A stretch of 64,000 bases of DNA, taken from a virus. The notes beneath the pieces were generated by a model. The model saw only the letters and a list, made by a program, of their open reading frames with translations, was not told the origin of the DNA and searched no databases. The translations under genes and the position numbers were made by a program. Position 1 is the first letter of the stretch; the number at the start of each line of letters is the position of its first letter. The stretch lies in IMG/VR virus record IMGVR_UViG_3300045988_054045; one strand, 5' to 3'. Below are positions 1-15,500 of the stretch, one piece after another.

Positions 1-494
1 CTGACAGTACTTTTAAACAGAGTGCTGTCAGAATTATGGATATTCGTCAGGGATATGTAGGAACTTCTAGCAATGGAGAAGCTAGAGTATCTATAAGAGA
101 TGAGAAAGCATGGGTTATCATAAAGTCCAACGGATGTTTAGCAAGATTGGAGTATGAAATTCCAATTCCTAAAAAGGATGCAGAAGAATTACTTTCATTC
201 ACTTGCGACAGAGTAATCCATAAAACTCGTTATATTATTCCGTGTGAGGATAGTATGCTTAAATGGGAAGTTGATGAGTTTCATGGTGAGGATGAAGGAT
301 TAATCATTGCTGAGATAGAGTTACCACGCAAGGATATGCCATTTGAAAAACCTCAATGGCTTGGTAAAGAAGTAACACAAGATACTACTTATTATAACTC
401 TACACTCTCTAAAACGTCTTGGAAAGCTATTCAGAAGTCTCGTGCTGAAGCTAAAGCTTGGGATGATTGGAGGGACTCATTAGTTAAGAAATGA
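1..494 (+). CDS. CYTH-domain (CyaB/thiamine-triphosphatase-like triphosphate tunnel) protein; 5' end cut by the window edge
   Basis: The frame is open from nt 3 with no stop before the first ATG at 36, so the true N-terminus lies upstream. CYTH-like motifs are IRQGY, RVSIRD, KTRYII and [21 protein letters not shown]. The stop overlaps the next start (ATGA at 491). Confidence 0.65.
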
Positions 495-757
495 AATATA
501 GGAAAAAACCAGTAATCATTGAAGCTATACAATTCATAGATAATGCTGACCGCATTATAGAAATTCAAGAGTTTCTAGGAGGAGATACCATAGTGATAAG
601 CTATGAGGATGCAGACAATCCTTATATGTATATTGAAACTCTTGAAGGTACTATGAAAGCCTCTGTAGGAGATTATATCATTAAGGGAGTGAATGGAGAG
701 TTCTATCCTTGTAAGCCAGATATATTTGAGAAAACTTACGAAGAGGTAGCTGAATGA
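491..757 (+). CDS. Hypothetical small protein (88 aa)
   Basis: ATG-initiated ORF with ATGA overlaps to both neighbours. The sequence [11 protein letters not shown]...[23 protein letters not shown] resembles small conserved phage proteins, but I cannot name a family. Confidence 0.5.
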
Positions 758-1665
758 GACTGATAAAACCATCATTTGAAATACTAGAACAAAAGCCTGG
801 ATTAGATGGGCTGTTACAACATATAGAAAGATGTGGTAGGACTTGTTATAAGTCAGAAGACAAGATTACTGAAGAAAGTGCTCCTAAGTTTGTGGATATG
901 CTTGTCAAACGTGGTCATACTGCAATGGTTGAGCATGGTACTGTATACCTAAAGTATAGTATAACATTGGAAGGCTCCATGAATATGGCTAACAAATATC
1001 ATTTCAATAAGTACTCTACAGTAACTATAGGTAATGAGCCTTTATGTGGTGGTGAGCCACAGGAATATAAGGATAAGTTCGATGGGCATACGTGTGCATA
1101 TATTACTACTAATTACAGAGTATTATTGCAAAATGATTGGCTTGATGACCTTAAATACCAATGTGAACCAACAGAGCACCACGTTAAACGTATAACTGTT
1201 AAGTTTACTTGTGATAGGGGAGTTAGTCATGAGTTTGTAAGGCATAGGGTATTTAGTTTTGCCCAGGAAAGTACTAGGTATTGTAACTATAATAAAGATA
1301 AGTTCGGAAATGAATGTACGTTCATCATACCTAGTTGGCTAGACTACGAGGAACAACAATTCACTGATAAGAACGATTCTTCTTGCAGCATTAGAACTGA
1401 CTTATCTGAGCATGAGTATTTTATAGACTTACTATTAGAGGCTGAAAGAACTTACAATTTCTTGGTTCAATACTGTGGTTGGAAACCTCAGCAGGCTAGA
1501 GCAGTTCTTCCCAACAGTTTAAAGACCGAGTTAATTATGACTGGTACTATTGAACAGTGGGAAGGGTTCTTTAAGCTAAGAGATGCTAATGATGCACATC
1601 CTCAAGCAAGAGAGTTAGCTGCACCATTACATGAGGAATTTATCAGAAGAGGTTTATTGCAATGA
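754..1665 (+). CDS. thyX: FAD-dependent thymidylate synthase ThyX
   Basis: [14 protein letters not shown] is a perfect match to the ThyX signature RHRxxSxxxxSxRY. The protein is 303 aa and translationally coupled to both neighbours. Confidence 0.9.
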
Positions 1666-2348
1666 AAGCAGAGGAGTACTTTGGAGACTGGATTGATGTT
1701 ATTGATAAGCAAGAACTACGTAAAGTAGTAACTTGGATTAATAAGACTAATTCAGCCACTCTATGCCCTTCTCCTAAAAACATATTCAGAGCATTTAGGG
1801 CTTGTCCATATGAAGACTGCAAGGTAGTTTTCTTAGGGCAAGACCCCTACCCACAGAAGGGAGTAGCTACTGGAATATTATTCGGTAACTCCGAAGATAC
1901 TCCAGAAGATAGGTTATCTCCTTCGCTTCAAATAGTTAAAGAGGCAGCTATTAATTATGAAATTCCCCATAACCGAATAGAATTTGACAACACGTTGGAA
2001 TCTTGGGCTAAACAGGGAATATTAATGATTAATACTGCCCTTACTTGTGAAGTAGGAAGAGTTGGGTCACACTTTGAGTTATGGAAGCCGTTTGTGTCTA
2101 AACTAATTCACAATCTTAGTTATAAGAACAATGGCATAGTTTATGTCTTATTTGGTAGTCAAGCACAGCTATTTAAGAATGATATAGTAGATAGTTTAAA
2201 GACTATTGAAGTATATCACCCTGCGTACTTCTCTAGAAAGGGTACTAAGATGCCCTCTAGTGTATTTACTGATATTAATGAGGTATTAAAGAAGCAGTAT
2301 AACTATCAAATAGAGTTTTATAAGGAGACAGAATATGGAATTTGCTGA
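1662..2348 (+). CDS. ung: Uracil-DNA glycosylase, family-1-like
   Basis: VVFLGQDPYPQKGVATGILF corresponds to the GQDPY water-activating loop. ILMINTALTCEVGRVGSHFELWKPF corresponds to the LLLN..LTV...SH..GW block. VYHPAYFSRKG sits in the position of the HPSPLS DNA-intercalation loop. Confidence 0.8.
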   Translation: MKAEEYFGDWIDVIDKQELRKVVTWINKTNSATLCPSPKNIFRAFRACPYEDCKVVFLGQDPYPQKGVATGILFGNSEDTPEDRLSPSLQIVKEAAINYEIPHNRIEFDNTLESWAKQGILMINTALTCEVGRVGSHFELWKPFVSKLIHNLSYKNNGIVYVLFGSQAQLFKNDIVDSLKTIEVYHPAYFSRKGTKMPSSVFTDINEVLKKQYNYQIEFYKETEYGIC

Positions 2349-2538
2349 GAGAAAGTCAGTCAATGACAAGTTAAGGAAATATGACCATCTAGCTAAGGAT
2401 GGTGACTTCATAGAGATTACTGAGTGGACTAATGGTGAAGGTTGGGATGTTACTATTAACGAGAAGCAATTACTCCTAACCAGAGGAGAATTGGAGGCTA
2501 TCGAGTACCTAACTAGGAGTCTAGACCATAAGAGCTAA
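2335..2538 (+). CDS. Hypothetical protein (67 aa)
   Basis: ATG ORF that overlaps the ung end by 14 nt and fills the gap to the next gene. No motif recognised. Confidence 0.4.
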   Translation: MEFAERKSVNDKLRKYDHLAKDGDFIEITEWTNGEGWDVTINEKQLLLTRGELEAIEYLTRSLDHKS

Positions 2539-2542
2539 CTTT

Positions 2543-3220
2543 ATGTACCTAAACATTAAGATAAAGGAAGATTTCAGAACCTTGAAGAAGGATACTGAAT
2601 ATAAGTTTGACTTTACTAATCAAGATAGGTATCTGATAGTTGGTCCGAATGGTTGTGGTAAGTCTACACTTATTAATATCATACGTAGCTTTCAGTGCGA
2701 CAATGCTAGCGACAGCCGTCAGGATAAACTTGGATATGCAGGGATTAGTGGTATGAAAGATAAGGCAGAAATTGACACTGACTTTGAGAAGTTTTACTTT
2801 ATTAGTTCTGAATTTGATGACCCATTATCATTAGACAACATGGCAACAGCAGAAGCAGCTATTACAAATGGTGGATTCTATTGGAAACGTAAGTCTAATG
2901 GTGAACGTCAGTTACAGAATCTAGGTAAGTGGGTTCAAGAGAACCAAGATAACTGGAATGAGAAGTGCCTATTGATTCTTGACGAAGCTGATAAGGGCTT
3001 CGATTTAAGGTATCAAGTAGGATTACACAATATGCTTATTAACATTCCAGCTAAGAATAATGTGAAATTTCTAGTTGTATCTCACACTCTAATTCCGATA
3101 TTGTTAGAGGACAAAGTTTATGCCTTCCAATATAGAAGGATACTCAGTCCGTCTACATATATATTTGTAGAAACTGGTTACGATATAAAAATTGATAAAG
3201 ATGAAAGAACAGAAGTTTGA
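2543..3220 (+). CDS. Compact ABC/SMC-head-type ATPase with no coiled coil
   Basis: Motifs present are Walker A (VGPNGCGKSTL), an ABC-signature-like KSNGERQ, Walker B/D-loop (LLILDEADKGFD) and an H-loop (VVSH). The N-terminal NIKIKEDFRTLKK...F is typical of AAA_15/21/23-like heads. Confidence 0.7.
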   Translation: MYLNIKIKEDFRTLKKDTEYKFDFTNQDRYLIVGPNGCGKSTLINIIRSFQCDNASDSRQDKLGYAGISGMKDKAEIDTDFEKFYFISSEFDDPLSLDNMATAEAAITNGGFYWKRKSNGERQLQNLGKWVQENQDNWNEKCLLILDEADKGFDLRYQVGLHNMLINIPAKNNVKFLVVSHTLIPILLEDKVYAFQYRRILSPSTYIFVETGYDIKIDKDERTEV

Positions 3221-3845
3221 ATTTAATCCTGAAAAGACTTTCTTCACGTCCGATACACATTTTGGTCATGCTAACATAATTAGATTATGTAATAGACCAT
3301 TTAAAGATGTAGAGGAGATGAATGAAAAGTTGATTGAGAACTGGAATAAAGTAGTTCCAGAGGACGGTACAGTCTTCCATTTAGGAGATTTTGCCTTCGG
3401 TGGTAGTGCACTATGGAATAGCGTTATCCCTCGTCTAAACGGACAAATCTACTTGATTATTGGTAATCACGATAGGAAGAATCTAAGACAAGGTTATATG
3501 GATAAATTTGCGGCTGTAATACCTCAAATGCAAATTCAGATAGAGAAAAGAAGTATCTATTTGAACCATTATCCATTCTTGTGCTATGGTGGCTCTTATC
3601 GTAATGAAGCTGATGCTGTATGGCAGTTGTTTGGTCATGTTCATTCTGGACCCACTAGTTCTGGTTTGGATTGTGATAGGTTGTGTAATCTATTCCCATA
3701 TCAATATGATGTTGGCGTAGATAACAATAACTACACTCCAATCTCTTGGGAAGAGGTGAAGAAAAAGATTCAAAACCAAATAGATAATGGAGTGGAGAAA
3801 TCTGTCAAGGAACATACAATTCCCGACGAAATATACAAACTATAA
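3201..3845 (+). CDS. Calcineurin-like metallophosphoesterase (COG4186-like phage phosphoesterase)
   Basis: Motifs are SDTHFGH, RPF...EMNEKLIENWN, HLGDF, GNHD and GHVH. The ORF-track start at 3192 is TTG and the first ATG is at 3201. Overlaps the ATPase gene by 20 nt. Confidence 0.8.
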   Translation: MKEQKFEFNPEKTFFTSDTHFGHANIIRLCNRPFKDVEEMNEKLIENWNKVVPEDGTVFHLGDFAFGGSALWNSVIPRLNGQIYLIIGNHDRKNLRQGYMDKFAAVIPQMQIQIEKRSIYLNHYPFLCYGGSYRNEADAVWQLFGHVHSGPTSSGLDCDRLCNLFPYQYDVGVDNNNYTPISWEEVKKKIQNQIDNGVEKSVKEHTIPDEIYKL

Positions 3846-4063
3846 TGACTAAATTGACTTTAGAAATCGACGGAATTATCTGTTCTATGGAGATACCTTA
3901 TAATGATGTAAGTGCTACTGAACTAATTAAGGGATTTGGTTCCTTAATGATTGGTCAGACATTTCTTGCTTGCACTGTTAAAGAGGCTCTAGAAGAGGTA
4001 GCCGAAGATTATGAAGACGAACTAAGAGTAGGTTATGAATCCCAACACACTGAGGAAGATTAA
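3845..4063 (+). CDS. Hypothetical protein (72 aa) with an acidic C-terminus
   Basis: ATG ORF with a TAATG junction to the upstream gene. No motif recognised. Confidence 0.4.
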   Translation: MTKLTLEIDGIICSMEIPYNDVSATELIKGFGSLMIGQTFLACTVKEALEEVAEDYEDELRVGYESQHTEED

Positions 4064-4358
4064 AAGGTTAGAAGCTGGTGAATCATTTATCACCAGTGAG
4101 CCTGGGAACTCTATGCTTCCGTTATATAAGAGTAATGAGAAGCATAGGGTTACTCCAATAAAATGGGAAGATTGTAAGGTGGGCGATGTAGTATTCTGTA
4201 AGGTTAGAGGTTCATGTGTAACTCACAAAGTCTATGCAGTAGATAGTGAGAAAGGTTGTCTAATAGGCAATAATAAAGGACACATGAATGGATGGACTAA
4301 GAATGTGTATGGCAAAGCCCACAAAATTGACCAATCGTTAAAAACTAAGAAGCCTTGA
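4035..4358 (+). CDS. Possible S24/S26-type (LexA or signal-peptidase-like) serine peptidase domain protein
   Basis: GNSMLP resembles the catalytic-Ser motif G-x-SM-x-P. It is followed by VGDVVF and THKV, where a Lys candidate sits. At 107 aa the assignment is tentative. Confidence 0.4.
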   Translation: MNPNTLRKIKRLEAGESFITSEPGNSMLPLYKSNEKHRVTPIKWEDCKVGDVVFCKVRGSCVTHKVYAVDSEKGCLIGNNKGHMNGWTKNVYGKAHKIDQSLKTKKP

Positions 4359-5047
4359 GAATTTGTGTAACGTCCGATTTACATGGCATTCTTCCTAAAA
4401 TAGAAGAGCCGTGTACAGCAGTATTGATATGCGGAGATATTATGCCATTACGTATGCAGAGAAACATTCCTCAGAGTGAGAAATGGTTAAAGACTGAATT
4501 TGCAGAATGGGTTAATAATCTTCCGTGTGAGTCTGTTATTATGGTAGGAGGCAATCATGACTTTGCTTTAGCTAATATGTACAGACAACCTTTAAAGATT
4601 AACTCAATCTTAACGCAGCCAACTAATGGTAAACTTGAGTTGTTAGATAATGAAGAGACTTGTATTATTGATGAGAGTGGAAAATGCTATTTAGTATGGG
4701 GAACTCCATATTGTAAAATCTTTGGCAATTGGGCTTATATGTATGAGCCTGAAACTCTAATCAAGGCATATAAATCTATGCCAGCAGAGTGTGATATTGT
4801 TATATCTCACGATGCTCCTAAATTATGCGGTCTTGGTGTTATCCACCAGAGATTTAACCAAGAGGATGCTGGTAATCCTTGGCTGGCTGACGAGATGCTT
4901 CGTAAACATCCTAAATATACATTCTGTGGACATATCCATAGTGGGGAACATAATCTGCAAACCCTTGATGATATGAAGATGGCTAATGTGTCTTTAGTAG
5001 ATGAAACGTATACAGAAACGTTTAAACCTTTATATCTCGATGTCTAA
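4355..5047 (+). CDS. Calcineurin-like metallophosphoesterase (second copy, different subfamily)
   Basis: Motifs are SDLHG, CGDI, GGNHD, SHDAP and CGHIHSG. The start is a TTG overlapping the upstream TGA, and no ATG lies upstream of the DLHG motif. Confidence 0.75.
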   Translation: MRICVTSDLHGILPKIEEPCTAVLICGDIMPLRMQRNIPQSEKWLKTEFAEWVNNLPCESVIMVGGNHDFALANMYRQPLKINSILTQPTNGKLELLDNEETCIIDESGKCYLVWGTPYCKIFGNWAYMYEPETLIKAYKSMPAECDIVISHDAPKLCGLGVIHQRFNQEDAGNPWLADEMLRKHPKYTFCGHIHSGEHNLQTLDDMKMANVSLVDETYTETFKPLYLDV

Positions 5048-5222
5048 AGTTGCAACAAGGGGAGGTATAGGCTTCTTCCCTCTACTGTTTATAGTACTAC
5101 TAGCCTGTAAGTTATTTGGAGCTAATATAACTTGGTTCTGGGTTATTGCTCCTTTATGGATGCCTCTTGTAGTAGTGCTAGTAATTGCTGTATTATTACT
5201 TATTATAAGTTCAATAAGATGA
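5040..5222 (+). CDS. Small membrane protein with two predicted TM helices (60 aa)
   Basis: The product MSKVATRGGIGFFPLLFIVLLACKLF...WFWVIAPLWMPLVVVLVIAVLLLII is almost entirely hydrophobic. I prefer the ATG at 5040 over the track start at 5001. The stop overlaps the pncA start (ATGA). Confidence 0.5.
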   Translation: MSKVATRGGIGFFPLLFIVLLACKLFGANITWFWVIAPLWMPLVVVLVIAVLLLIISSIR

Positions 5223-5800
5223 AAGAAAAAGTAACCCTAGTAGTTGTGGACTTCCAGTATGACTTCTGTCTGCTGGGAGCACCACTCTATGTTCCAGGGT
5301 CTGATAAGGCTCTGTGGAACATCTCTCATTTAATTGAGAATAACAAAGTTGGTCGGGTGATATTTACTGCCGATTGGCATCCATCTAACCATTGTTCCTT
5401 TAAGAAGAATGGTGGTCAGTGGAATGAGCATTGTGTGCAGTTCTCTAAGGGTGCGGCTATACATGATTTATTACTGTATGGTTGTATTGGTGCTGGAATA
5501 CCTTATGAAGTAATTACTAAAGGTACTCTATCACTTTCAGAAGAATATGGAATAAAGGTTGCTCCAGCTAATGCTAAAGTCCAGTACCATACTATCTATA
5601 GTTCATCGGTAGGAGTTGACGTTCAGCCAGATGAGCAAGTAGTGATTTGTGGTTTGGCAGGAGACTTCTGCGTACTTGAAACTTTGAAGAACCTAGCCCC
5701 TGTTAACCCTATGATATTCCTTGATGGTGTAGCTTCCCTAGATGGAGGAGTTAAACTCAATGAATATGTAGAAAGTAATGGAGTTAGGGTATGGTCATAA
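5219..5800 (+). CDS. pncA: Nicotinamidase (isochorismatase-family, PncA)
   Basis: Motifs are VVDFQYDFC (DxQxDF), ADWHPSNHCSF (metal and substrate site D-x-H-P..H-x-SF) and ICGLAGDFCV (catalytic Cys block). The start is set at the internal ATG 5219, because the 29 upstream codons of the track ORF overlap the membrane-protein gene. Confidence 0.8.
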   Translation: MKEKVTLVVVDFQYDFCLLGAPLYVPGSDKALWNISHLIENNKVGRVIFTADWHPSNHCSFKKNGGQWNEHCVQFSKGAAIHDLLLYGCIGAGIPYEVITKGTLSLSEEYGIKVAPANAKVQYHTIYSSSVGVDVQPDEQVVICGLAGDFCVLETLKNLAPVNPMIFLDGVASLDGGVKLNEYVESNGVRVWS

Positions 5801-6027
5801 AAATTATCATACTAGTACTAGTTCACTTATCAATATCAGCAATAGCTATTCTTATGGGTAAGTACTTACCTAACATGGTACACAAGGAGAATGAACGTGA
5901 AGTATTCTCATTCATTTATTGTTGTCTTCTTCCCATAATGAATATAATTGTTGTTTGCATTGGTTTATGTGAGTTAGTTGATGTAGTAATGCATAAAATT
6001 ATAAAATATATAAAGAGATGGTTGTAA
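5791..6027 (+). CDS. Small membrane protein with two predicted TM helices (78 aa)
   Basis: Hydrophobic segments are IIILVLVHLSISAIAILMG and FIYCCLLPIMNIIVVCIGLC. Overlaps both pncA and pncB by 10 nt. Confidence 0.5.
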   Translation: MVIKIIILVLVHLSISAIAILMGKYLPNMVHKENEREVFSFIYCCLLPIMNIIVVCIGLCELVDVVMHKIIKYIKRWL

Positions 6028-7184
6028 AATCTATTTTAGATACGGACTTGTATAAATTTACAACTTCGTATGCCTATATGAAACTATTCCCTTATTCTAT
6101 TGGAACATTTGAGTTCTTTGATAGGGATAGTACAGAATATTCCGATGAATTTCTGGAAAACTTGAGAATTGAGTTATGTAACTTAGGTTCTCTTAAACTT
6201 ACTAAGGATGAACAGGAGTTTATGGCTAATAACTGTAGGTTCATTCCTCCCATGTATTGGGAATGGTTATCTGGGACAAGACTTGATGCTGGAAAAGTAA
6301 GAGTGTGGTTGGATGAAGAAAAGCATCTGCACATCACAGTTACAGATTATCTGTATAGAGTAACTCTGTATGAAGTACCTATCCTGGCTATCGTGTCTCA
6401 GTTAAGAAACCATATGCTAAACCACTGTATTGATATGCAGCTAGTTATTGGAAAGTTAGCTCCTAAGATTAGTCTGTCTAATAAGAGTGGTATTCCATTC
6501 TCTGAGTTCGGCACTCGTAGAAGATATTCATTCAATGTTCAGGATGAAGTTATTAAATACATCAAAGAACATTCTATTTACTGCACAGGAACATCAAATT
6601 GTTACTTTGCAATGAAATATGATATGAAGATGATGGGAACTCATCCACATGAATGGTTTATGTTTCATGGTGCTATGTATGGCTATAAGCAAGCTAACTA
6701 CATGGCTTTGGAGAACTGGACTAATGTATATGATGGTGATTTGGGTATTGCATTAACTGATACCTATACTACAGATGTATTCTTTAAGAATCTATCTCGT
6801 AAGCAGGCTAAGTTATTTGATGGTATTAGGCAGGATAGTGGAGATGAATTCCAATTTGTAATGAAGGCTATTGCCAGATACAAAGAACTTGGAATTGACC
6901 CATCTACTAAGACTATTATCTTCAGCAATGCACTGACATTCGATAAGGCGGAAGAAATTCAGGAATATTGTAGAGGTAGAATCCGATGTGCGTTCGGTAT
7001 AGGTACTAACCTTACTAATGACACTGGATTTAAACCATCTAATATTGTTATGAAGCTGACTTCTTGTCGTATGAATAAGAACCAACCAGTATTCAACTGT
7101 GTGAAACTATCTGATGATTTAGGGAAACATACTGGTGATACTGAAGAGGTTAAGCACTGTATTCAAACTATTAGTAAGTTTTAA
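6018..7184 (+). CDS. pncB: Nicotinate phosphoribosyltransferase (PncB)
   Basis: The N-terminal ILDTDLYKFT, EFGTRRR and GIGTNLTND are the canonical NAPRTase blocks. The protein is 388 aa. Confidence 0.9.
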   Translation: MVVKSILDTDLYKFTTSYAYMKLFPYSIGTFEFFDRDSTEYSDEFLENLRIELCNLGSLKLTKDEQEFMANNCRFIPPMYWEWLSGTRLDAGKVRVWLDEEKHLHITVTDYLYRVTLYEVPILAIVSQLRNHMLNHCIDMQLVIGKLAPKISLSNKSGIPFSEFGTRRRYSFNVQDEVIKYIKEHSIYCTGTSNCYFAMKYDMKMMGTHPHEWFMFHGAMYGYKQANYMALENWTNVYDGDLGIALTDTYTTDVFFKNLSRKQAKLFDGIRQDSGDEFQFVMKAIARYKELGIDPSTKTIIFSNALTFDKAEEIQEYCRGRIRCAFGIGTNLTNDTGFKPSNIVMKLTSCRMNKNQPVFNCVKLSDDLGKHTGDTEEVKHCIQTISKF

Positions 7185-7188
7185 GTAA

Positions 7189-7344
7189 ATGCCAACCTGG
7201 CGATATGCACTAAAATCTAGTATTTCCAAACTTACCCCCAAAGAGCTAAATGCTTATGGGGATAAGGGTTGGGAATTAGTATCTGTGGTATATGTTGAAC
7301 TAGTGGGATTCATATATTACTTTAAAAAAGAATTAAAAGTATGA
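7189..7344 (+). CDS. Small DUF4177-like protein (51 aa; below the ORF-track size cutoff)
   Basis: I translated the product by hand as MPTWRYALKSSISKLTPKELNAYGDKGWELVSVVYVELVGFIYYFKKELKV. The LN..G..GWELVSV....Y.FK pattern matches DUF4177. The ORF fills the pncB-nadE gap exactly and its stop overlaps the nadE ATG (ATGA). Confidence 0.45.
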   Translation: MPTWRYALKSSISKLTPKELNAYGDKGWELVSVVYVELVGFIYYFKKELKV

Positions 7345-8285
7345 ACAGATTAAATTATGAAAAAGTTTTCAAAACCCTCGTTGAGGAGACTGGAAATTAT
7401 CTTGTTAATCATAGTCTTCGCGCTATGGTTCTTGGGGTTAGTGGCGGCATTGACTCCACTGTTGTAGCTGCTATTTGTTGTGAGGTAAACAAACAAACTA
7501 ATATTCCTCTAATTGGACGGAGTTTGCCAATTAAGAATAAGAAGGATGAGTTTGATGTATCTAAACTAGTAGGAGAGGCATTCTGTAATAACTTTGATGT
7601 TGCGAATCTGTATGATGAGTATAAATGCTTTCTGAGTGGGTTAGTATGGAGGGAAGAGAGAATTGATTTATTGGATGATACTGAAACCATGCACCCAGAG
7701 AAGTCCAAACAACAAACTCTTATAGCTAATGGTAATATCCAAGCTAGGCTCAGAATGATATATCTCTACAATCTTGCTTCCATTCATAATGGGTTAGTAA
7801 TGTCTACTGATAATCAGACTGAGTATCAGCTAGGATTCTGGACTATTCATGGTGATGTGGGTGACTTTGACCCAATTCAGGACTTGTGGAAGACAGAAGT
7901 TTATGGGCTGGCTGGATATCTATTTCATAAATATGATATGAAGGCTAAAGCTACCAGCCTGTTTTACGGAAAGGAATCTAAAGAATGTAAAGATGCTATA
8001 GCTAAGGCTACAGCTATACATAGGTCTATAGCCTTAACTCCTACCGATGGTCTTGGTATTAGTAATAGTGACTTAGACCAGATTGGTGCAAAGAGCTATA
8101 ACGATGTTGATAGGGTGTTACAAACTTTAGTCTGTCCTGCTTCTCCTGAGAATGACAGAGTGCAAGATGCTTTAACTGTTGAAATAGGTCCAGAGATTAT
8201 AGATAAGATTATCAAAAGACGTCGTAACTCTAGGTTTAAGCGTGAAAAGTCTCCTATCTATATATCTAGGGATAGGTATGAATAA
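7341..8285 (+). CDS. nadE: NH3-dependent NAD+ synthetase (NadE)
   Basis: Contains the PP-loop VLGVSGGIDSTVVA and the downstream block TDNQTEYQLGFWTIHGDVGDFDPIQDLWKTEVYGLA, which is typical of NadE. Confidence 0.9.
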   Translation: MNRLNYEKVFKTLVEETGNYLVNHSLRAMVLGVSGGIDSTVVAAICCEVNKQTNIPLIGRSLPIKNKKDEFDVSKLVGEAFCNNFDVANLYDEYKCFLSGLVWREERIDLLDDTETMHPEKSKQQTLIANGNIQARLRMIYLYNLASIHNGLVMSTDNQTEYQLGFWTIHGDVGDFDPIQDLWKTEVYGLAGYLFHKYDMKAKATSLFYGKESKECKDAIAKATAIHRSIALTPTDGLGISNSDLDQIGAKSYNDVDRVLQTLVCPASPENDRVQDALTVEIGPEIIDKIIKRRRNSRFKREKSPIYISRDRYE

Positions 8286-8296
8286 AATTGTTTGAA

Positions 8297-8548
8297 ATGA
8301 AGTTATATTATTTATTTTTATTAGTAATGTTCCTATTGATGGGTTGTACTAACTCATCTAACATTAGTGGTCCTAATACTATAGGAACGTCTAAGGTACA
8401 TGGAGATGTGTACAGCTATGTTATTGATGGACATGAATACATAAAGTTAGGTAATGGCTTTGCACATTCTGGTACTTGCAAGAAATGTAAGGCAGATTTG
8501 GAAAGTATTATCCGTAAAGTAGTTAAGGAGGAACGTTCACAATGGTAG
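8297..8548 (+). CDS. Putative lipoprotein (83 aa)
   Basis: The signal peptide MKLYYLFLLVMFLLMGC carries an L-M-G-C lipobox. The mature part contains a CKKCK pair. The track start at 8288 is TTG and the first ATG is at 8297. Confidence 0.55.
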   Translation: MKLYYLFLLVMFLLMGCTNSSNISGPNTIGTSKVHGDVYSYVIDGHEYIKLGNGFAHSGTCKKCKADLESIIRKVVKEERSQW

Positions 8549-9102
8549 GGATATTCTTTGGGTCTTTTGACCCTCCGCACATAGGTCATGTTAATGTAGT
8601 CACAGCTGCTCTAAACTCTGGTAAAGTTGATAAAGTAATTGTAGTTCCTGCATATAAGAGTGTATGGAAGAATACTGAAACCAAATGGGAGTATAGGCTT
8701 GCTATGGCTAAGGAAACATTTGACAATATTCCTGGAGTAGTTGTAGATGGTATAGAATACCGCATATCTAATGGTGAGCCTTTACCCACTTATAAGACTA
8801 TAGAAGCATTAAAGGAGATATATGGAGAGTTTACTATTGTTACATCTGCAGAAACCTATAAGGAAATTCCTAGATGGCAGCATGGTGAAGAAATACTAAA
8901 GAATAATAAATTCTTAGTAGTTGATGTGGCTCATTTTGACAGTGAAGATATATCTTCGGATGATGTTGATATTGTATATGCTCCAGATATTACTATATGT
9001 TCTACAGCTATCCGAATGTGGGTTGATAACGGGGAGATTATATTACCATTTGTAACAGATGCAGTTAATTCAATAATCAGAAAACTTGGGCTATATAAAT
9101 GA
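8542..9102 (+). CDS. nadD: Nicotinate/nicotinamide mononucleotide adenylyltransferase (NadD-type)
   Basis: GIFFGSFDPPHIGHVNVV is the GxFxPxHxGH nucleotidyltransferase motif. The C-terminal ICSTAIRMWV corresponds to the ISSTxIR motif. Confidence 0.85.
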   Translation: MVGIFFGSFDPPHIGHVNVVTAALNSGKVDKVIVVPAYKSVWKNTETKWEYRLAMAKETFDNIPGVVVDGIEYRISNGEPLPTYKTIEALKEIYGEFTIVTSAETYKEIPRWQHGEEILKNNKFLVVDVAHFDSEDISSDDVDIVYAPDITICSTAIRMWVDNGEIILPFVTDAVNSIIRKLGLYK

Positions 9103-9617
9103 ACCAAATCTATGTTTCAGGTCCTTGGTCTTTTTCCTCTGGAGTACTTCAAGTAGTTAAGAGTATAAAGACTAAATCAAAAGATAAGGTAGTTTATAGT
9201 GAGAAGGGAGAAGATTATCAATTCTCTAAACTTGAACAATCTAACTATGTCGTATTCGTATTAGATGGATTTGCATGGCAACAAAAACTTGAGAATATAT
9301 CAAGAGGTATGCTCTCAGAATTACTGTGGTGCATAAATCATAGGATTCCCATGTTTTTAGCTTATAAATCTGCTAATGGATTAGGCATATATGGAACGGA
9401 AATAGATGACAATTTAAACTTTAAGGGAGTTGCTGGGACTGCGGATAACTTCTACCAGATTATAAGTGGACAATTTGGAAACATTGTTGCTGATGATTCT
9501 GTGTTCCTAAAAGGATTTAGAATATCAGACGTAGGAAACGTATATCTAAAAGGAGAAATGCTCGCAGACCCATTGGACTATCTTAATGTTGAACAACCTA
9601 AGAGTTATTTTTATTAA
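9099..9617 (+). CDS. Hypothetical protein, possibly with a nucleoside 2-deoxyribosyltransferase-like (NDT/Rcl-like) fold
   Basis: Three segments fit the NDT pattern. QIYVSGPW resembles the IYLAGP N-terminus, YVVFVLDG resembles the 'D.vva.ldG' segment, and RGMLSELLWCINHRIPMFL resembles the GTxFEIGyA..lgKPv catalytic-Glu segment. This is pattern-level similarity only. Confidence 0.35.
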   Translation: MNQIYVSGPWSFSSGVLQVVKSIKTKSKDKVVYSEKGEDYQFSKLEQSNYVVFVLDGFAWQQKLENISRGMLSELLWCINHRIPMFLAYKSANGLGIYGTEIDDNLNFKGVAGTADNFYQIISGQFGNIVADDSVFLKGFRISDVGNVYLKGEMLADPLDYLNVEQPKSYFY

Positions 9618-9618
9618 C

Positions 9619-10155
9619 ATGAAGAACTTTCCAATATTAGACGAAAATGGCAAGGAATGGTGGATAAGCCGTTCTATTGCAGTAACTGGATGTATATTTA
9701 CATTTCTGAATGGTAAGTGGTGTGTATTAGCCAATAAAAGAGGTGAGGGCACACCTGACTTTCAGGGAATGTGGAATATGCCCTGTGGTTATTTGGACTT
9801 CAATGAAACTACGGCTGAAGCAGTAATAAGAGAAGTCTATGAAGAAACTGGAGTTAAAGTCAATCCTGATTATCTTCATTTCTGGTGTTTCAATGATTCT
9901 CCAACTCAAAACAGGCAGAATGTATCCTTTAGGTATTATGCCTTAGTCGATGCACAGCCTGGAAATATTAGTGTCGGAACTGGTAATGATAGAGGTGGAG
10001 AAGAGGATGAAGTAGAAGCTATAGGATGGATTCCAGTAGATACCGTTGATAATTATAAGTGGGCATTTGGTCACGATGAAATTATCAAGGACTTTGTGGA
10101 ATGGATGCACCTGGAAGATGACTATTTTGATGACATTGACCAGGACTCAGAATGA
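9619..10155 (+). CDS. Nudix hydrolase
   Basis: GYLDFNETTAEAVIREVYEETGV is a perfect Nudix box (Gx5Ex7REUxEExGU). The start is set at ATG 9619, 1 nt after the upstream TAA. The track start at 9586 would overlap the upstream gene. Confidence 0.85.
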   Translation: MKNFPILDENGKEWWISRSIAVTGCIFTFLNGKWCVLANKRGEGTPDFQGMWNMPCGYLDFNETTAEAVIREVYEETGVKVNPDYLHFWCFNDSPTQNRQNVSFRYYALVDAQPGNISVGTGNDRGGEEDEVEAIGWIPVDTVDNYKWAFGHDEIIKDFVEWMHLEDDYFDDIDQDSE

Positions 10156-10529
10156 TTTACTTTATAAGTGGACATAGAGACCTAACATGGGAGGAGTTTG
10201 CCAAATGGTACGCTCCTGCCATTAGTAGGACACTCAGTACGGATAATGGAGCAATGTTTGTAGTAGCTGAATGTGACGGTGCTGACAGAATGGCTCAGGA
10301 CTATTTGCTAGCCTGTGGTGTTGCTCCAAAGAGTATCAATGTATACCATATGCTAAAAGCACCTAGGTATTTAGCTAATCACAATATACCCACTATAGGT
10401 GGCTATACATCCGATTTGCAGAGGGATGAAGCTATGACTAGGAACTCTGACTATGACATTGCTTTTATCCGTAAGGGTAAAGAAACCTCTGGAACTGCTC
10501 AAAACATTTTAAGGAGATGGACAAAGTAA
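10152..10529 (+). CDS. SLOG-superfamily / DUF2493-like protein
   Basis: Three segments follow the DUF2493 pattern. They are ISGHRDL (compare itGsRdw), FVVAECDGADRMAQDYL (compare vvhGGA.GADrlA..wA) and RDEAMTRNSDYDIAFI..GKETSGTAQNI (compare RN..M....d..iaf....S.GT). Confidence 0.5.
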   Translation: MIYFISGHRDLTWEEFAKWYAPAISRTLSTDNGAMFVVAECDGADRMAQDYLLACGVAPKSINVYHMLKAPRYLANHNIPTIGGYTSDLQRDEAMTRNSDYDIAFIRKGKETSGTAQNILRRWTK

Positions 10530-10678
10530 AAGAAACTGAAAAGGAGAAGTTTGAGAGATTAAGACTACACTTTACTAGTTTGTTTTTACAGCATCCCAAG
10601 ATGTTAGAGGTTCTTACTTATAAGGATATTGTAGTTAAGGCTAAGGAGTTTACTAAAGAATATCTAAAGCATGAATAA
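10517..10678 (+). CDS. Possible small ORF (53 aa; below the track cutoff)
   Basis: I translated the product by hand as MDKVKETEKEKFERLRLHFTSLFLQHPKMLEVLTYKDIVVKAKEFTKEYLKHE. It fills the otherwise empty 10530-10670 gap and overlaps its neighbours by 13 nt and 8 nt. Confidence 0.3.
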   Translation: MDKVKETEKEKFERLRLHFTSLFLQHPKMLEVLTYKDIVVKAKEFTKEYLKHE

Positions 10679-11162
10679 GTTTATATTCCTAGATATAGAC
10701 GGGGTTATGAATAGTAACCTTTTCTATTCTGAAAGAACCCAAGATAAGAGATATGATGAATGGATTAAAGACCATCCTCAGCATATAGCTTGGGGTGCTT
10801 GCAACATTGACCCAAGAGCAGTAAAGAGGTTAAATAGAATAACGGATGCTACTAAGGCTAAGATTGTAGTTTCCTCTACTTGGAGAAGTGATAGTAACCT
10901 CCAAGAGGTATTTACTTTAGTTGGCATTAAAGAGCCTATATATGATGTTACACCTTATATGAGGAGTAGACATAGAGGTTCCGAAATACAGGAGTGGTTG
11001 GATAAGCAAACTGAGCCTTATAGGTATATTATTCTTGACGATGATAGTGATATGTTAGACTGTCAGTTACCTTACTTTATCCAAACTGACTGGTTGAAAT
11101 GGGGTTTAAGTGATGAAGATGTCGAACAAGCAATACATATTCTAAATGATACAGCCGCTTAG
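10671..11162 (+). CDS. HAD-superfamily phosphatase-like protein
   Basis: Motifs are FLDIDGVM (motif I, DxDG), VVSSTWR (motif II) and IILDDDSD (motif IV). The layout resembles the small HAD domains found in phage and RNA-repair contexts. Confidence 0.65.
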   Translation: MNKFIFLDIDGVMNSNLFYSERTQDKRYDEWIKDHPQHIAWGACNIDPRAVKRLNRITDATKAKIVVSSTWRSDSNLQEVFTLVGIKEPIYDVTPYMRSRHRGSEIQEWLDKQTEPYRYIILDDDSDMLDCQLPYFIQTDWLKWGLSDEDVEQAIHILNDTAA

Positions 11163-11325
11163 ACATATCTATAATGACCCAACCCTAGACAGAGAGTTAC
11201 TTCTTCGTAAGTTAACCTCTCTAAGGATTAAGGGTGTAATTAGTATTGAAGAATACGAGTATTTAAAACATTTAATAAGAAAGGAGAACGAAAATGCTCA
11301 GAGAGCAAATGGATGCACTTATTAA
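11146..11325 (+). CDS. Possible small ORF (59 aa; below the track cutoff)
   Basis: I translated the product by hand as MIQPLRHIYNDPTLDRELLLRKLTSLRIKGVISIEEYEYLKHLIRKENENAQRANGCTY. It spans the 11163-11293 gap but overlaps yqeY by 32 nt, so it is uncertain. Confidence 0.25.
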   Translation: MIQPLRHIYNDPTLDRELLLRKLTSLRIKGVISIEEYEYLKHLIRKENENAQRANGCTY

Positions 11326-11770
11326 GCAATCAATGCTTGATAAGAACACAAAGAGAACTGATGTACTAAGAGCTATTAAGAATGAGTTCTTAGTGTTTCA
11401 AACAGCTAAAAATGCTAAGCCTTTAGATGATGCAGCTGAGTTTACTATTCTTCGTAAGATGGTTAAGCAAAGACTTGATAGTAGAGACCAATATATTGCA
11501 GCAGGAAGGAAAGACCTAGCCGATAATGAATCTAAAGAGATTCTAGTGCTGGAGTCTTTCCTTCCGCGAGAAGCCACGATTGAGGACATCAATAAGGCAA
11601 TCTATGAAATCTGTACGGAGAAGGGATGGTACATACCGCAGAGTGAAGACACAATCTGCCCAGAAATCCCGAAAAAGTCTATGGGAGAAGCTATTAAGGT
11701 GGTCAAGGGAAAGCTTGATAATGTAGATGGTAAATTGCTTGCTGATACTATTAAATCATTCCTTGTATGA
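11294..11770 (+). CDS. GatB/YqeY-domain protein
   Basis: The protein is collinear with YqeY. Matching segments are KRTDVLRAIKNEF, ILRKMVKQRLDSRDQYIAAGRKDLADNESKEILVLESFLP and MGEAIKVVKGKLDNVDGKLLADTIKSFL. A roughly 20-aa insert (EKGWYIPQSEDTICPEIPKK) is present. Confidence 0.75.
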   Translation: MLREQMDALIKQSMLDKNTKRTDVLRAIKNEFLVFQTAKNAKPLDDAAEFTILRKMVKQRLDSRDQYIAAGRKDLADNESKEILVLESFLPREATIEDINKAIYEICTEKGWYIPQSEDTICPEIPKKSMGEAIKVVKGKLDNVDGKLLADTIKSFLV

Positions 11771-12003
11771 CACTAAAGGAAATAGTAACTCTTCCGAGCG
11801 AAGCAAAGTTTGTTCATGCAATAGCTGGAACTCTATATTATAGAATCATAACAGATGATGTAATTGTAGAGTTTCCTATTGACATGAATGATAAGGATGA
11901 TGTTGGTACTACCACATTTGTAGCTTCCTATAAGCCTATTACATTAATGAGGTATATTAGGAAGGCTATTGATAATGAGAGTATAATAATCATCCACAGA
12001 TAA
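11767..12003 (+). CDS. Hypothetical protein (78 aa); last gene of the enzyme operon
   Basis: ATG ORF with an ATGA overlap to yqeY. No motif recognised. Confidence 0.45.
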   Translation: MTLKEIVTLPSEAKFVHAIAGTLYYRIITDDVIVEFPIDMNDKDDVGTTTFVASYKPITLMRYIRKAIDNESIIIIHR

Positions 12004-12080
12004 GATGTAAGTAGTTGTACTATGTGATATTTGACTTTTAAATCAAACTCTAATCTATTTTCATGAAATTCATAAATTGA

Positions 12081-12112
12081 TTTGGTGATGCAGCTTATAA
12101 TGCTTATATTTG
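12081..12112 (+). promoter_or_regulatory. Bacteroidota-type promoter (-33 TTTG, -7 TAnnTTTG)
   Basis: TTTG lies at 12081-12084 and TATATTTG at 12105-12112, with a 20-nt spacer. The site sits in the only sizeable intergenic gap of the + strand (12004-12151), 40 nt upstream of the 12152 ATG. Confidence 0.5.
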
Positions 12113-12151
12113 CAGAAATTAAGTGGTTAAACTGTTTAAACGTATTAATTT

Positions 12152-12466
12152 ATGAAAATCGAAGAGAAATTTAGAAAATTCCAGCAAGGTGGTGCTGCAC
12201 CTCAACCTGGTGCTGAACCAGCAGGCGGAGCACCAGCAGAAGGAGCACCTGCTGAGGGTGGTGCGCCTGCTGAAGGGGGACAAGACCCAATGGCACAGAT
12301 TCTACAAGTAGCTGCACAAGCAGTTCAGACTCAGAATTGTGAGGCTGCAATGGCTGTATGTCAAGCTCTAATGCAAATCGCTCAAGGTGGTGCTGCTCAA
12401 GAACAAGCTCCTCAAGAGGAACCAACTTTTGCAAGAAAAGGTGCTAGACTAGTAAGAGTAAGATAA
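12152..12466 (+). CDS. Low-complexity Ala/Pro/Gly/Glu/Gln-rich small protein (104 aa); candidate virion cargo or internal protein
   Basis: The N-terminus is MKIEEKFRKFQQGG. Degenerate GAPAEG-type repeats follow, then a Gln/Ala-rich helix-like part and a basic tail ARKGARLVRVR. The gene has its own promoter and terminator. It is locally GC-rich in an AT-rich genome. Confidence 0.6.
   Translation: MKIEEKFRKFQQGGAAPQPGAEPAGGAPAEGAPAEGGAPAEGGQDPMAQILQVAAQAVQTQNCEAAMAVCQALMQIAQGGAAQEQAPQEEPTFARKGARLVRVR
12188..12289 (+). repeat. Degenerate in-frame tandem repeat encoding (G)GAPAEG-like units
   Basis: The peptide is GGAAPQPGAEPAGGAPAEGAPAEGGAPAEGGQDP. The DNA shows repeated gcacc(a/t)gc(a/t)ga(a/g)gg units. 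Confidence 0.6.
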
Positions 12467-12485
12467 TTAGTCAACAAGGTAAGAA

Positions 12486-12516
12486 GGGGCGTATATTAAT
12501 TATATGCTCCTTTTTT
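12486..12516 (+). terminator. Intrinsic terminator after the 104-aa gene
   Basis: GGGGCGTATA (12486-12495) pairs with TATATGCTCC (12501-12510) to form a 10-bp stem that includes two G-U pairs, with loop TTAAT. TTTTTT follows at 12511-12516. Confidence 0.55.
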
Positions 12517-12530
12517 ATTATACATAGTAT

Positions 12531-15500
12531 ATGTCACAAGTAATAAGAAAGTACAACTCTGGAGGTCAAACTGACAAACCTAAGCTTCTGAGTATAAAAG
12601 GGCTAGGCGACTTTAACCAAGATGACCTAATAAAGAGAGGTTATAGAGATGTGGATGAATATACCTCATCTAAGGGGTTAAAGAATGCTGCTGCAGCTGA
12701 TTTTAGGAATGCTGTGCAATATATGCTTGAGGGAATGAACAATGGCACTATAACTATGGATGCTATGGGCAACTTTCAAGATGCAACGGGTCAAAAATCA
12801 AGTACTGGTGAGTTAGATAGAAAGAAATTCTTGGGTATAAAAACAGGGGTTAAGAATACTGAGAATAATGCCTATGGATTAGCTGCTGATTATCTATACA
12901 ACATCATTAAAGGAGCACCGCAGTATAAGCAGCCTGAGGTAAAGGCTGAGAAATTTAACACCAATGACTATCTAACTAAGGAGATTTCAAAAAGATGGTA
13001 TGGAGGAAACAATATAGATTTTGGCAACTGGTTTAAAAACAGGTCAGAGAAAGACCGTAATGCACTCATAGCTGACATCTTTAATAGTGCGGATTATAAT
13101 AAATTGTATCAAGAGCACGATTGGACCGATACTGGTATCAATAGCGTAGAAGACTTAATGGCTCGTGGAAGGGCATTTGGCTCTGCTATTTCTAATAATA
13201 AACTAGACAATGACGATTACAACACATTTGCCACACTAGGTGGTAGTGATTTAGATAAGTTCTTGAGGGAAGCCTCAGTAGAGACTGAGTCTACTCCAGA
13301 ACAGAGTAAAATGAAGGCGTGGGAAGCTGAGGCAGAAGCAGCTGGAGCAACCACTCCTGAAGCTAAGGCTGCATTCATTCAAAGAAAGCAGCGAGAAGAA
13401 GCTGACAGAAATGAAGCTATTATTAAGGCTAACCAACAAGAAATATACGAGAGGGAGAGAAATAAATTCTTCAACGATTATGCTACTCGGAATCCATTTA
13501 AGGAATCCATTCAGTCAGGATATGTCCCTAGCTCTGTATCATATAAACCAGAAGACTATGATAAACCAATAAAGGACTTCTATAATAATAATATTGACCA
13601 ATACTTAAACGATAACCTATCTAGAGATTGGTTTAGAGCTGGTAATACCCAACATATTGCCAATCACATGGATTATCTAATTAATCACTTGAAGATGAGT
13701 CTTCCAGACGCAGGTGATGGGTTTGTGGCAATTCCTTCAACGTTTGATTATAATAACTACACTACAATGGTATATAATCCAACTACTAGACAATATAGAG
13801 AATCATCTATGCTAGTGAATGATGCCTTAAGACGTCTTGCAAATGCTCATTATGATAGTACTCGTACATCTAAGAAGGAAAATGGTGGTGTACTCTATAT
13901 GCAGTTTGGAGGAACGTATAGTGCTGGGGCTAATTACAGTAGCTACCAACAACAGAGAGCACAAGAGAAGAAAACCAAAGAAGAGGAAACCGTTAGACAG
14001 AAAGCTGAATCTAAAGGAAGGACTACTGAGGAGCAGAAGGTAGCTGATAGAAAGCCTGGAAGCATCACTAGTGGTGACTGGACTGGGGCTGATTATACTA
14101 GACTAGCATCTATAGTTGCTGATATTGGTTCTTTGGGTGCAGCATATGTGCCTGTCTATGGTACTGCTGCTTCAGCAGTGTTGGGTGTAGGTAGTTCTCT
14201 AGCCAATTATGGAGCGGATGTGTCTGAGAATGGATTTAAATGGGGTGACTTAGGTAGCTTGGCTATGAACTTAGGCTTAGATACAGTGGGTCTGATTCCA
14301 GGATTGGGAACAGCCGCGAAGGGTAGTAAGATGCTTAAAACAGCTGTTAAGTATATACCTAAAACATTGTCCCTATTAGCTGCATATAACTACACGGGTC
14401 CAGCCATAGAATCCATGAAAAAGGCTATGACACCAGGTGCTGACTTAACAGTGGATGACTGGAGAAATATTGCAGAAGGTTTTAAGATGGTGTTACAAGG
14501 AGGTAAGGGTGTCAAGAGAACTGTTCAAGCTCGTAATCTCAAAAAAGACCTAGCAACAGGTAATAAAGTGCTTACTACGCTAGGTGGTAAAGAAGTATCT
14601 GTAACCCCAGCTCAGTTATCTGAGATACGTTCTCATAGAAAATTGGAAGACCAAGAAGCAGCACTGCAACTGTTACTGAAAGATGATAATTTGAGACTAG
14701 CTGGGGACTTAAATAAAAGGTGGTTTAACCCTTCTCGCTATCTTCCTGATTCCAATATCAGAAATGAGTATGATTTTAACAAGAAAGTGAAGAAGAGAAC
14801 CTCTCAAGGATGGATAGAAGTACCTAGAGTCTATAGTAACTCTGATAAATACATCGCTGCTACTATGCAGCAGAACGTTGCTAAGATTCCAGGTGTTGAT
14901 GAGCTATCAATGAAGTATAATGATTGGAAGTACAGGGTAGAAAAGAGTCCAAAAAGTAATAAGGGTAAAAAGCCAAGCTCACAAAAGGAAGCTCCTAAGG
15001 AAATGCTAGCTTTACCAGCCCCAGGTCAAACACATAGAGTATTTCACATGGGTTCTGGACAACCTAAGGTACCTCAAGATGTAACAAATCCATCTAACCT
15101 TAGTAAACCAGGAACATATCAGGATAGAGCTGTCCATGTAGGAGGTACTCCAGTTGAGTCTCCAAATGCTAATGCAGTAAGGACAGTTAGGACTATAAAT
15201 TCTATTTTAGAGCCATTCGTTCCTAAGACTACAAACTTGCCAGCTGTCATCCCTGCATCTAGAAATGCTAACAAGGTAGTTGCTTCACAAACTATACAAC
15301 CTTCACAGAGGTTAGACCAGTTTATTGAAGGGCAAATACCAGGAGGAAGGCAGTTTGGTAAACAAAGAGCTAAAACTGAGAGGGAATATAGAGATGTATT
15401 CCATCCTGTAGCAGAACGTGAGTATAATGCAGTTTGGGATGAAGCAGTTAGAAATAGGAAGGACTTTGGATATGAAGAAGTCTTCCCTAAGAGAAGTCCT

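Follow-up and report, generated by a model that had tools for sequence, protein, structure and literature searches.

Introduction

Several phage modules that restore nicotinamide adenine dinucleotide (NAD+) have been described. NARP2, composed of Nampt and Nmnat, counters NADase defence (Osterman et al. 2024, 10.1101/2024.02.11.579819), NARP1 (Adps and Namat) uses ADP-ribose pyrophosphate (ADPR-PP) and nicotinamide, and NARP3 (PnuC and NadR), published in August 2026, relies on imported nicotinamide riboside (PMC13464706). We describe here a gene cluster, located at 5219-10529 on the + strand of a 64,000-nucleotide stretch of viral DNA (IMG/VR record IMGVR_UViG_3300045988_054045; this whole stretch is called the window hereafter), which encodes the enzymes PncA, PncB, NadE and NadD and would thereby provide a complete deamidating route from nicotinamide to NAD+.

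Bacterial salvage by PncA and the Preiss-Handler enzymes PncB, NadD and NadE involves the same four families as the window, with the same catalytic residues and predicted chemistry. The window set differs in being phage-encoded and gathered in one block of ~4 kb, whereas PncB is solitary in Bacteroides and Porphyromonas; moreover, its NadE is of the short, single-domain, NH3 type, and its PncA and NadD are highly diverged. Genes of this kind are also known from gut phages: pncB-nadD-nadE clusters occur in gut jumbo phages with predicted Bacteroidota hosts, for which phage pncA is mentioned as well (Microbiome 2024; PMC11662467), and K01916 (nadE), K00969 (nadD) and K08281/K00763 (pncAB) are found together on human gut viral contigs (Theranostics 2025; PMC11780533). 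In the latter study, the viral NAD genes are enriched in healthy controls, whose viromes had more crAss-like viruses. The 'NAD-jumbo phages' of the former have genomes of >200 kb that encode the whole NAD+ pathway, whereas the lineage of the window has the complete pathway on contigs of up to ~190 kb. Compared with the clusters of both studies, in which we found no residue-level, selection or synteny analysis, PncA is integral and colinear in the window lineage, and a seven-gene architecture is conserved, which adds a protein resembling nucleoside 2'-deoxyribosyltransferases (NDT) and TIR domains, a Nudix hydrolase and a SLOG-fold protein. As the gene set has already been reported in gut phages, as metabolic genes, the cluster is not a new system and its novelty is limited.

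The likeness to NARP2 is one of functional analogy: both are phage-encoded, both lead from nicotinamide and phosphoribosyl pyrophosphate (PRPP) to NAD+, and both have a Nudix gene nearby. NARP2 takes two amidated steps via nicotinamide mononucleotide (NMN), whereas the window route would take four, via nicotinate, nicotinate mononucleotide (NaMN) and nicotinate adenine dinucleotide (NaAD), and needs NadE. The phosphoribosyltransferase is Nampt in NARP2 and PncB (TIGR01514) in the window, where the Nampt family phrog_448 is matched at only 1.6e-12. Counter-defence by NARP2 has been demonstrated by experiment, whereas that by the window route is a proposal. NARP1 and NARP3 are likewise NAD+-restoring phage modules, but both use unrelated enzymes and start from other substrates. 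In profile searches, none of the ten proteins encoded at 5219-10529 matches PnuC or Adps/Namat-type families, and NadR-type models reach the nucleotidyltransferase N-terminus of NadD far below threshold (TIGR01526, 24 versus 341 bits; NF005988, 17.5 versus 201). The original prediction for this locus had stated that its enzymes differ from those of NARP1 and NARP2, and indeed neither defining pair, Adps with Namat or Nampt with Nmnat, is matched. It had also proposed a 'third' NAD+ reconstitution route, a rank that can no longer be claimed since NARP3 has been published (PMC13464706).

Four enzymes of a predicted deamidating NAD+ salvage route

The four enzyme genes are the following.

5219-5800, + strand: PncA-like protein, predicted nicotinamidase, 193 amino acids (aa); Pfam Isochorismatase 5.3e-9, 36.8 bits against a cut-off of 27
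6018-7184, + strand: PncB, 388 aa; TIGR01514 408.7 bits against a cut-off of 269.55, 2.6e-122
7341-8285, + strand: NadE, 314 aa; TIGR00552 121.9 bits against a cut-off of 63.65
8542-9102, + strand: NadD, 186 aa; Pfam CTP_transf_like 7.9e-15

PncB is the most clear-cut of these assignments. The protein also exceeds the cut-off of NF003704 (429.5 versus 379 bits), matches Pfam NAPRTase (1.9e-53) and NAPRTase_N (3.5e-29), and aligns over its full length, from residue 2 to 385, with the nicotinate phosphoribosyltransferase structure 2im5 (1.1e-121). Its LDTDLYKF, FGTRRR, GT.PHEW and GIGTNLT blocks are at least 95% conserved among 50 homologues, and the last three are identical in the 2im5 alignment; the GTHPHEW block is presumably the one that holds the phosphorylated His, after Salmonella PncB. 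By its family scores it is unambiguously a PncB-type nicotinate phosphoribosyltransferase (NAPRTase), predicted to convert nicotinate and PRPP to NaMN.

NadE belongs to a sole Pfam family, NAD_synthase (1.7e-36, residues 12-303). The N-terminal CN-hydrolase (glutaminase) domain is absent, two-domain NadE models being matched by their synthetase part only, and the best PDB matches are NH3-dependent NadE enzymes (3p52, 3fiu, 1xng). The PP-loop VSGGIDST is present; among 58 homologues, SGG.DST is at least 95% conserved and the block TDN..E..LGF.T.HGD.GD is conserved too. The protein is thus, by its domain content, a single-domain, NH3-type NadE, predicted to form NAD+ from NaAD, ATP and NH3.

For NadD, the top NCBIfam matches are NadD models (TIGR00482, 92.2 bits, 4e-26, under the cut-off of 112.45), and the end-to-end PDB alignments are to NadD structures (2h29, 1kam, 8aih). 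GSFDPPHIGH and CSTAIR are both present, and G.FDP.H.GH and ST.IR are at least 95% conserved among 49 homologues. The protein is predicted to make NaAD from NaMN and ATP, the preference for NaMN being suggested by the NadD-type matches and the co-occurring NadE.

PncA is more distant from characterised families. It scores 55 bits with the NCBIfam PncA model NF008623 (9.4e-15, residues 4-153), under the equivalog cut-off of 174 bits, and its PDB sequence matches are all nicotinamidases, including 3r2j, 1ilw, 2h0r, 2wt9 and 3pl1. D11, K101 and C151 align with the catalytic triad of 3r2j, 1ilw and 29iv; among 54 unique homologues, K101 and C151 never vary, and D11 is found in 53, the other having a gap. 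The catalytic Cys is the second one of CGLAGDFC, C151; the first, C144, is replaced by Val in 13 of the 54 homologues. An Asp-His-His (DxH...H) metal site tells nicotinamidases from other isochorismatase-like hydrolases. The corresponding residues of the window protein, D52, H54 and H71, are present in all 54 homologues and align with the DWHPENH...HCVQ block of solved nicotinamidases. These features point to a nicotinamidase that would convert nicotinamide to nicotinate and NH3.

The original prediction of four enzymes within less than 4 kb is borne out by the coordinates on the + strand and by every motif that it had quoted. Each protein matches the family expected for it (Isochorismatase, NAPRTase, NAD_synthase and CTP_transf_like), and a loss of catalytic residues, which would have spoken against function, is not seen under alignment, neither in the PncA triad nor at the NadE ATP site. 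Together with purifying selection (see below), the family scores and the retained catalytic residues argue well for a complete deamidating route from nicotinamide to NAD+.

Conservation, selection and origin

Relatives were obtained by scanning IMG/VR with PncB. The 79 loci retrieved lie, with few exceptions, on contigs of 65-190 kb, and their content was read by local tblastn and extraction of open reading frames (ORFs). In GenBank phages, megablast with the cluster returned fragments only, relatives being found by tblastn and the IMG/VR scan. Co-occurrence in phage genomes, which the original prediction had proposed to look for, is the rule: all four enzymes are present in 66 of the 79 loci, in the order PncA-PncB-NadE-NadD in 63, over a span of 3.0-6.6 kb (median 4.05 kb), and in 58 loci the Nudix and 125-aa genes are found downstream too. 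Several of those that are incomplete are truncated at a contig end (L032, L043, L060, L072). In L077, a truncated NadE is directly followed by a HAD gene, and L036 and L074 are without NadD and the neighbouring genes. Contigs whose PncB is at least ~67% identical to the window copy span 17-190 kb; L067 and L071, the only ones to exceed 200 kb, are distant relatives.

The enzymes have diverged to different extents among these relatives. Identity to the window copy has a minimum of 54% and a median of 74% for PncB, 27% and 61% for NadE, and 24% and 46% for NadD, and the lowest identity of PncA is ~29-30%. Median pairwise ratios of nonsynonymous to synonymous substitution rates (dN/dS) are as follows, all seven genes being under purifying selection.

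Enzymes: PncA 0.14, PncB 0.06, NadE 0.19, NadD 0.06
Downstream genes: 172-aa protein 0.15, Nudix hydrolase 0.06, 125-aa protein 0.11

The nearest cellular PncB proteins are those of Bacteroides species (65-68% identity), followed by Porphyromonas (51-52%), and no PncA, NadE or NadD gene lies within 6 kb of these cellular genes. Because cellular PncB stands alone in this way, the four-gene block appears to have been assembled and retained in phages. The GC content of the window is uniform (0.33-0.40), NAD cluster included, so that the cluster has the composition of the phage.

Some related loci are filed under bacterial names. L090 (ONIZ01000001.1, 'uncultured Firmicutes bacterium RUG343') and L067 (IMGVR_UViG_2799112330_000002) are the same 410,106-bp contig, filed once as bacterial and once as viral, on which PncA is beside PncB and NadE ~6 kb off; it probably represents a jumbo phage of the rumen that was wrongly binned with Firmicutes. 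L095 and L096, contigs of 58-78 kb from metagenome-assembled genomes of Tenericutes/Firmicutes, have a compact NadD-PncB-NadE arrangement without PncA, with a PncB 49% identical to that of the window. Finally, the 735-kb uncultured phage LR756501.1/LR756503.1 has a PncA-like gene and PncB within ~8 kb (423214-431429); its NAD repertoire may be under-annotated, nadD only being credited to it (PMC11662467).

Conserved partner genes downstream of NadD

The boundary first given to the locus, 5219-9102, was too narrow, as it leaves out three conserved genes at 9099-10529.

9099-9617, + strand: 172-aa protein, following NadD; syntenic in 54 loci
9619-10155, + strand: Nudix hydrolase; Pfam NUDIX 7.5e-16
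10152-10529, + strand: 125-aa SLOG-fold protein; AlphaFold2 (AF2) model with a pLDDT of 95

Profile searches with the 172-aa protein gave no match in Pfam, NCBIfam, PHROG or PDB sequences. Most of the metagenomic contigs that encode its homologues are no longer than ~190 kb, though a few reach ~370 kb. G70 and E74 are invariant. The AF2 model (pLDDT 74), whose C-terminus is disordered, has a flavodoxin-like fold in the N-terminal ~125 aa. Its Foldseek matches are weak (E 0.07-0.3); they include 8pqs, 8rqd and 8of6 and comprise NDT, DNPH1 and YtoQ as well as TIR domains, from which the protein can tentatively be described as NDT/DNPH1/TIR-like.

The Nudix ORF starts at 9586 in its longest form, and the internal ATG at 9619 avoids an overlap. 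The Nudix box RE..EETG is conserved, and there is faint similarity to models and structures of the NadM-Nudix and NrtR types. The protein appears to be a generic Nudix hydrolase, for which ADP-ribose pyrophosphatase is a candidate activity. A Pro 16 residues past the Nudix box, considered as a hint of this activity, was given no weight, being not conserved in relatives.

The 125-aa protein had no match in Pfam, NCBIfam or PDB sequences by profile search, and the named Pfam SLOG families, such as PF10686, are not matched by the window copy. Its top Foldseek matches in PDB are DprA, ShosA, YpsA, LOG and ThsA-SLOG; DprA, YpsA, LOG and YspA structures are matched with Foldseek probabilities of 0.9-1.0 and TMq of 0.57-0.77, and ThsA-SLOG of Thoeris is farther away (rank 49, probability 0.35). 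The matches in BFVD, down to 3e-8, are viral DprA-like, YspA/cpYpsA SLOG and LOG proteins, with which it has the fold in common. The family comprises 1267 representative clusters, and 25 residues are invariant among 31 homologues. When ten longer relatives were scanned for Pfam fusions, a ClpX zinc finger and two weak, sub-threshold PF10686 matches were all that was found. Going by its modelled fold, the protein is a small member of the SLOG superfamily, a DprA/YpsA/LOG-like Rossmannoid, and it probably binds a nucleotide or an ADP-ribose-derived ligand.

Thoeris combines TIR-like (ThsB) and SLOG (ThsA) folds. Because ligands derived from nucleotides or ADP-ribose are typical of SLOG and TIR/NDT-like folds, and because Nudix ADP-ribose pyrophosphatases accompany phage Nmnat, it is reasonable, by analogy, to suppose that the partner proteins could handle NAD+ breakdown products.

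Layout of the gene array

From 2543 to 12003 on the + strand, all ORFs run in one direction without gaps, neighbours overlapping by 4-10 nt or being spaced by 2-4 nt. The enzyme genes themselves are not adjacent, small ORFs lying between them. Of the translational coupling claimed in the original prediction, the gap-free array stands and direct enzyme-to-enzyme overlap does not, so that coupling can only be suggested. The array is probably transcribed as a single unit. The small ORFs, and the gene upstream of them, are listed below.

4355-5047, + strand: calcineurin-like metallophosphoesterase; Pfam Metallophos 1.1e-10, phrog_1649
5001-5222, + strand: hydrophobic 73-aa ORF directly 5' of PncA; 35-100% identity in many relatives, no family
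5791-6027, + strand: hydrophobic 78-aa ORF between PncA and PncB; family match not significant
7189-7344, + strand: 51-aa ORF between PncB and NadE; weak, sub-threshold matches to DUF4177 and Sp36, found in some relatives only
8288-8548, + strand: 86-aa ORF with a signal-peptide/lipobox-like N-terminus (..LLMGC..); no family

The 78-aa ORF is confined to the closest relatives and is a lineage-specific insertion, since PncA directly abuts PncB in most related loci. The 86-aa ORF, which may be read as a lipoprotein from its N-terminus, is kept in position in many relatives with 40-99% identity. Presence of the four small ORFs differs among relatives, and other relatives have different inserts; in L026, for instance, NadE and the 86-aa ORF are separated by an additional ~1 kb. 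The enzyme junctions thus look like hotspots for small-gene insertion.

The metallophosphoesterase gene is found upstream of PncA in nearly all related loci. A link of the upstream metallophosphoesterases to the 'phage phosphatases' extending NARP1 was considered and dropped. A wider nucleotide-metabolism block surrounds the cluster (36-494, 754-1665, 1662-2348, 3192-3845, 4355-5047, 10671-11162 and 11294-11770), which contains a CYTH-domain protein, ThyX, a UDG-superfamily protein, two calcineurin-like phosphoesterases, a HAD_SAK_2 phosphatase and a YqeY-like protein.

Genome setting and host

The crAss-like origin suspected at first is supported by two structural proteins. The ORF at 44665-49356 (- strand) matches crAss_MUZ, the Pfam family of the crAssvirus muzzle protein (3.5e-28), and the ORF at 57699-59120 (- strand) is 22-26% identical to annotated crAss-like 'major head protein' genes. 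The latter is also 86% and 60% identical to MT835470.1 and MT835492.1, respectively, two unannotated human-faecal phage records of 117-122 kb. By these hallmark structural proteins, the source genome is a divergent crAss-like gut phage. From this identity and from the affinity of PncB, we infer that the host is a Bacteroides or another member of the Bacteroidales.

Downstream of the NAD array, six very large ORFs of 1572, 612, 2690, 3097, 361 and 1569 aa stand back to back on the + strand (12531-42251), the giants of the window being those of 2690 and 3097 aa. In the ones that were scanned, the 3097-aa ORF being outside the scan, a helicase-like AAA_19/AAA_30 segment (2690 aa) and a PD-(D/E)XK nuclease segment (1569 aa) are recognisable. 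The only sizeable gap before them is occupied by a 104-aa ORF (12152-12466) without family match, rich in low-complexity Ala/Pro/Gly/Glu/Gln repeats (..GGAAPQPGAEPAGGAPAEGAPAEGGAPAEGG..). GC skew reverses at ~42 kb, where the coding strand switches, and a tRNA scan of the window found none.

Proposed role and alternative explanations

We favour, as a probable though by no means secure reading, that the cluster is a functional deamidating salvage pathway, kept for a long time as a vertically inherited core module, and that its payoff is the maintenance of NAD+ during drain, including drain by NADase defence. PncA would hydrolyse nicotinamide, giving nicotinate, which PncB would join to PRPP, giving NaMN; NadD would adenylate NaMN, giving NaAD, and the single-domain NadE would amidate NaAD with free ammonia and ATP, giving NAD+. 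The module could in this way restore NAD+ in the infected cell from the nicotinamide set free by NAD+ cleavage. By analogy with NARP2, its most likely payoff would be the supply of NAD+ under drain, TIR/SIR2-type NADase defences included, in a carrier lineage of large crAss-like gut phages, probably infecting Bacteroides. Because the nicotinamide-specific entry step, PncA, is retained, the substrate is suggested to be nicotinamide rather than dietary nicotinate, and the base to be recycled from NAD+ cleavage. Relevant context comes from published work: gut Bacteroides strains have one to four TIR proteins each, several of which are NADase-active in vitro (PMC9092222), and NAD+ falls in acapsular B. 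thetaiotaomicron during infection by the crAss-like phage DAC15 (PMC12118408). A counter-defence role of the deamidated route is plausible by analogy with NARP2, and the sequence itself gives no means of telling it from a mere boost of NAD+.

Several points weigh against this proposal. The route is long and costly, consuming, by textbook stoichiometry, PRPP and ATP at the PncB, NadD and NadE steps, and may be too slow against an active NADase. As PncA and NadD are under their NCBIfam equivalog cut-offs, their substrate specificity is a prediction, as is the preference of NadD for NaMN over NMN. L036, L074 and L077 are without NadD or more, so that some genomes may do without the full pathway, unless errors of assembly account for these loci. 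Scans of 1-13000 for sigma-70 promoters, terminators and the Bacteroides-type -33/-7 pattern gave nothing above chance. In the literature, we found no paper that tests a PncA/PncB/NadD/NadE route against a defence system or names a deamidated route of counter-defence; searches for 'NARP4', for nicotinamidases of phages and for experiments on Preiss-Handler counter-defence likewise yielded nothing relevant.

The alternative that survives best is plain metabolic augmentation, in which luminal or intracellular nicotinamide and nicotinate would be turned into more NAD+ for large-phage replication and host energy metabolism, with no meaningful protection from NADases. We regard it as possible, if rather doubtful. 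It is the reading given by the published surveys, which treat such genes as auxiliary metabolic genes (PMC11662467, PMC11780533), and the cluster does lie among housekeeping genes of nucleotide metabolism (ThyX, UDG-like, phosphoesterases, HAD, YqeY); Bacteroides also already own such salvage, as PncB is present in their genomes, and a multi-step, ATP-hungry chemistry seems ill-suited to racing a NADase. However, NARP2 too was first taken for salvage metabolism and later proven to be counter-defence, and the strict retention of PncA, together with the adjacent Nudix, SLOG and TIR/NDT-like genes, suggests a link to NAD+ breakdown that goes beyond dietary niacin.

The same neighbours allow a stronger version of our proposal, namely that the whole seven-gene block is a dedicated counter-defence unit, a fourth, deamidated route of NAD+ reconstitution that hits both the signalling and the depletion arms of Thoeris-like immunity in Bacteroides. 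In such a unit, the salvage enzymes would rebuild NAD+ from the nicotinamide that TIR/SIR2 NADases set free, the Nudix hydrolase would make AMP and ribose-5-phosphate from ADP-ribose and thus feed PRPP, and immune signals derived from ADP-ribose would be bound or destroyed by the free-standing SLOG protein, by its TIR/NDT-like neighbour or by the two together. In this extended form, we consider the idea unlikely.

It is less likely still that the module supplies NAD+ to phage-encoded consumers, such as an NAD+-dependent ligase, ADP-ribosyltransferases or enzymes of RNA NAD-capping/decapping, an explanation to which we give little credence. Many NAD+-consuming genes are reported in NAD-jumbo phages (PMC11662467), and a Nudix hydrolase belongs to the module. 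However, no LigA-type ligase was found in the window or in its 117-kb relative MT835470.1, whose ligase (L100:6487-7695) is ATP-dependent (PF01068, 5.1e-16), and no ADP-ribosyltransferase, SIR2 or macro domain was found among the scanned window proteins, the structural-module ORFs being scanned by PHROGs only. The feeding of a phage NAD+-dependent ligase as the purpose of the module was accordingly ruled out.

More improbable again is that at least one enzyme acts on a different substrate, PncA on another amide or NadD and NadE towards an NAD analogue, so that the product would not be NAD+. PncA and NadD do score under curated equivalog cut-offs and diverge fastest, with identities down to 24-30%, but the metal site that distinguishes nicotinamidases is invariant, all PDB matches are to nicotinamidases or NadD, and the co-occurrence of four consecutive pathway steps would be hard to explain otherwise. 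Finally, a recent host-derived passenger without a role in infection, for which the Bacteroidota type of PncB (Bacteroides 65-68%; 2im5, 1.1e-121) might speak, can be dismissed, as cellular PncB is at most 68% identical and unclustered, gene order is held in 63 phage contigs over deep divergence, all genes are under purifying selection and the base composition is that of the phage.

Significance for crAss-like phages

crAss-like phages are among the most abundant human gut viruses, and how they cope with the dense arrays of Bacteroides defences is poorly understood. The freshest lead offered by the cluster is its two uncharacterised accessory proteins, SLOG-like and TIR/NDT-like. If the counter-defence role is true, phages could recruit any complete path from nicotinamide to NAD+ for this purpose, beyond the short ones of NARP1, NARP2 and NARP3, and the cluster would be a marker by which gut phages resistant to NADase systems could be predicted. 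Should it do no more than boost NAD+, it would still be a well-defined and strongly conserved metabolic module, made of four compact enzymes and two partners. Viral NAD+ genes are statistically tied to health states in the gut-virome literature, and a mechanism established in the lineage that most commonly carries them would make such ties interpretable.

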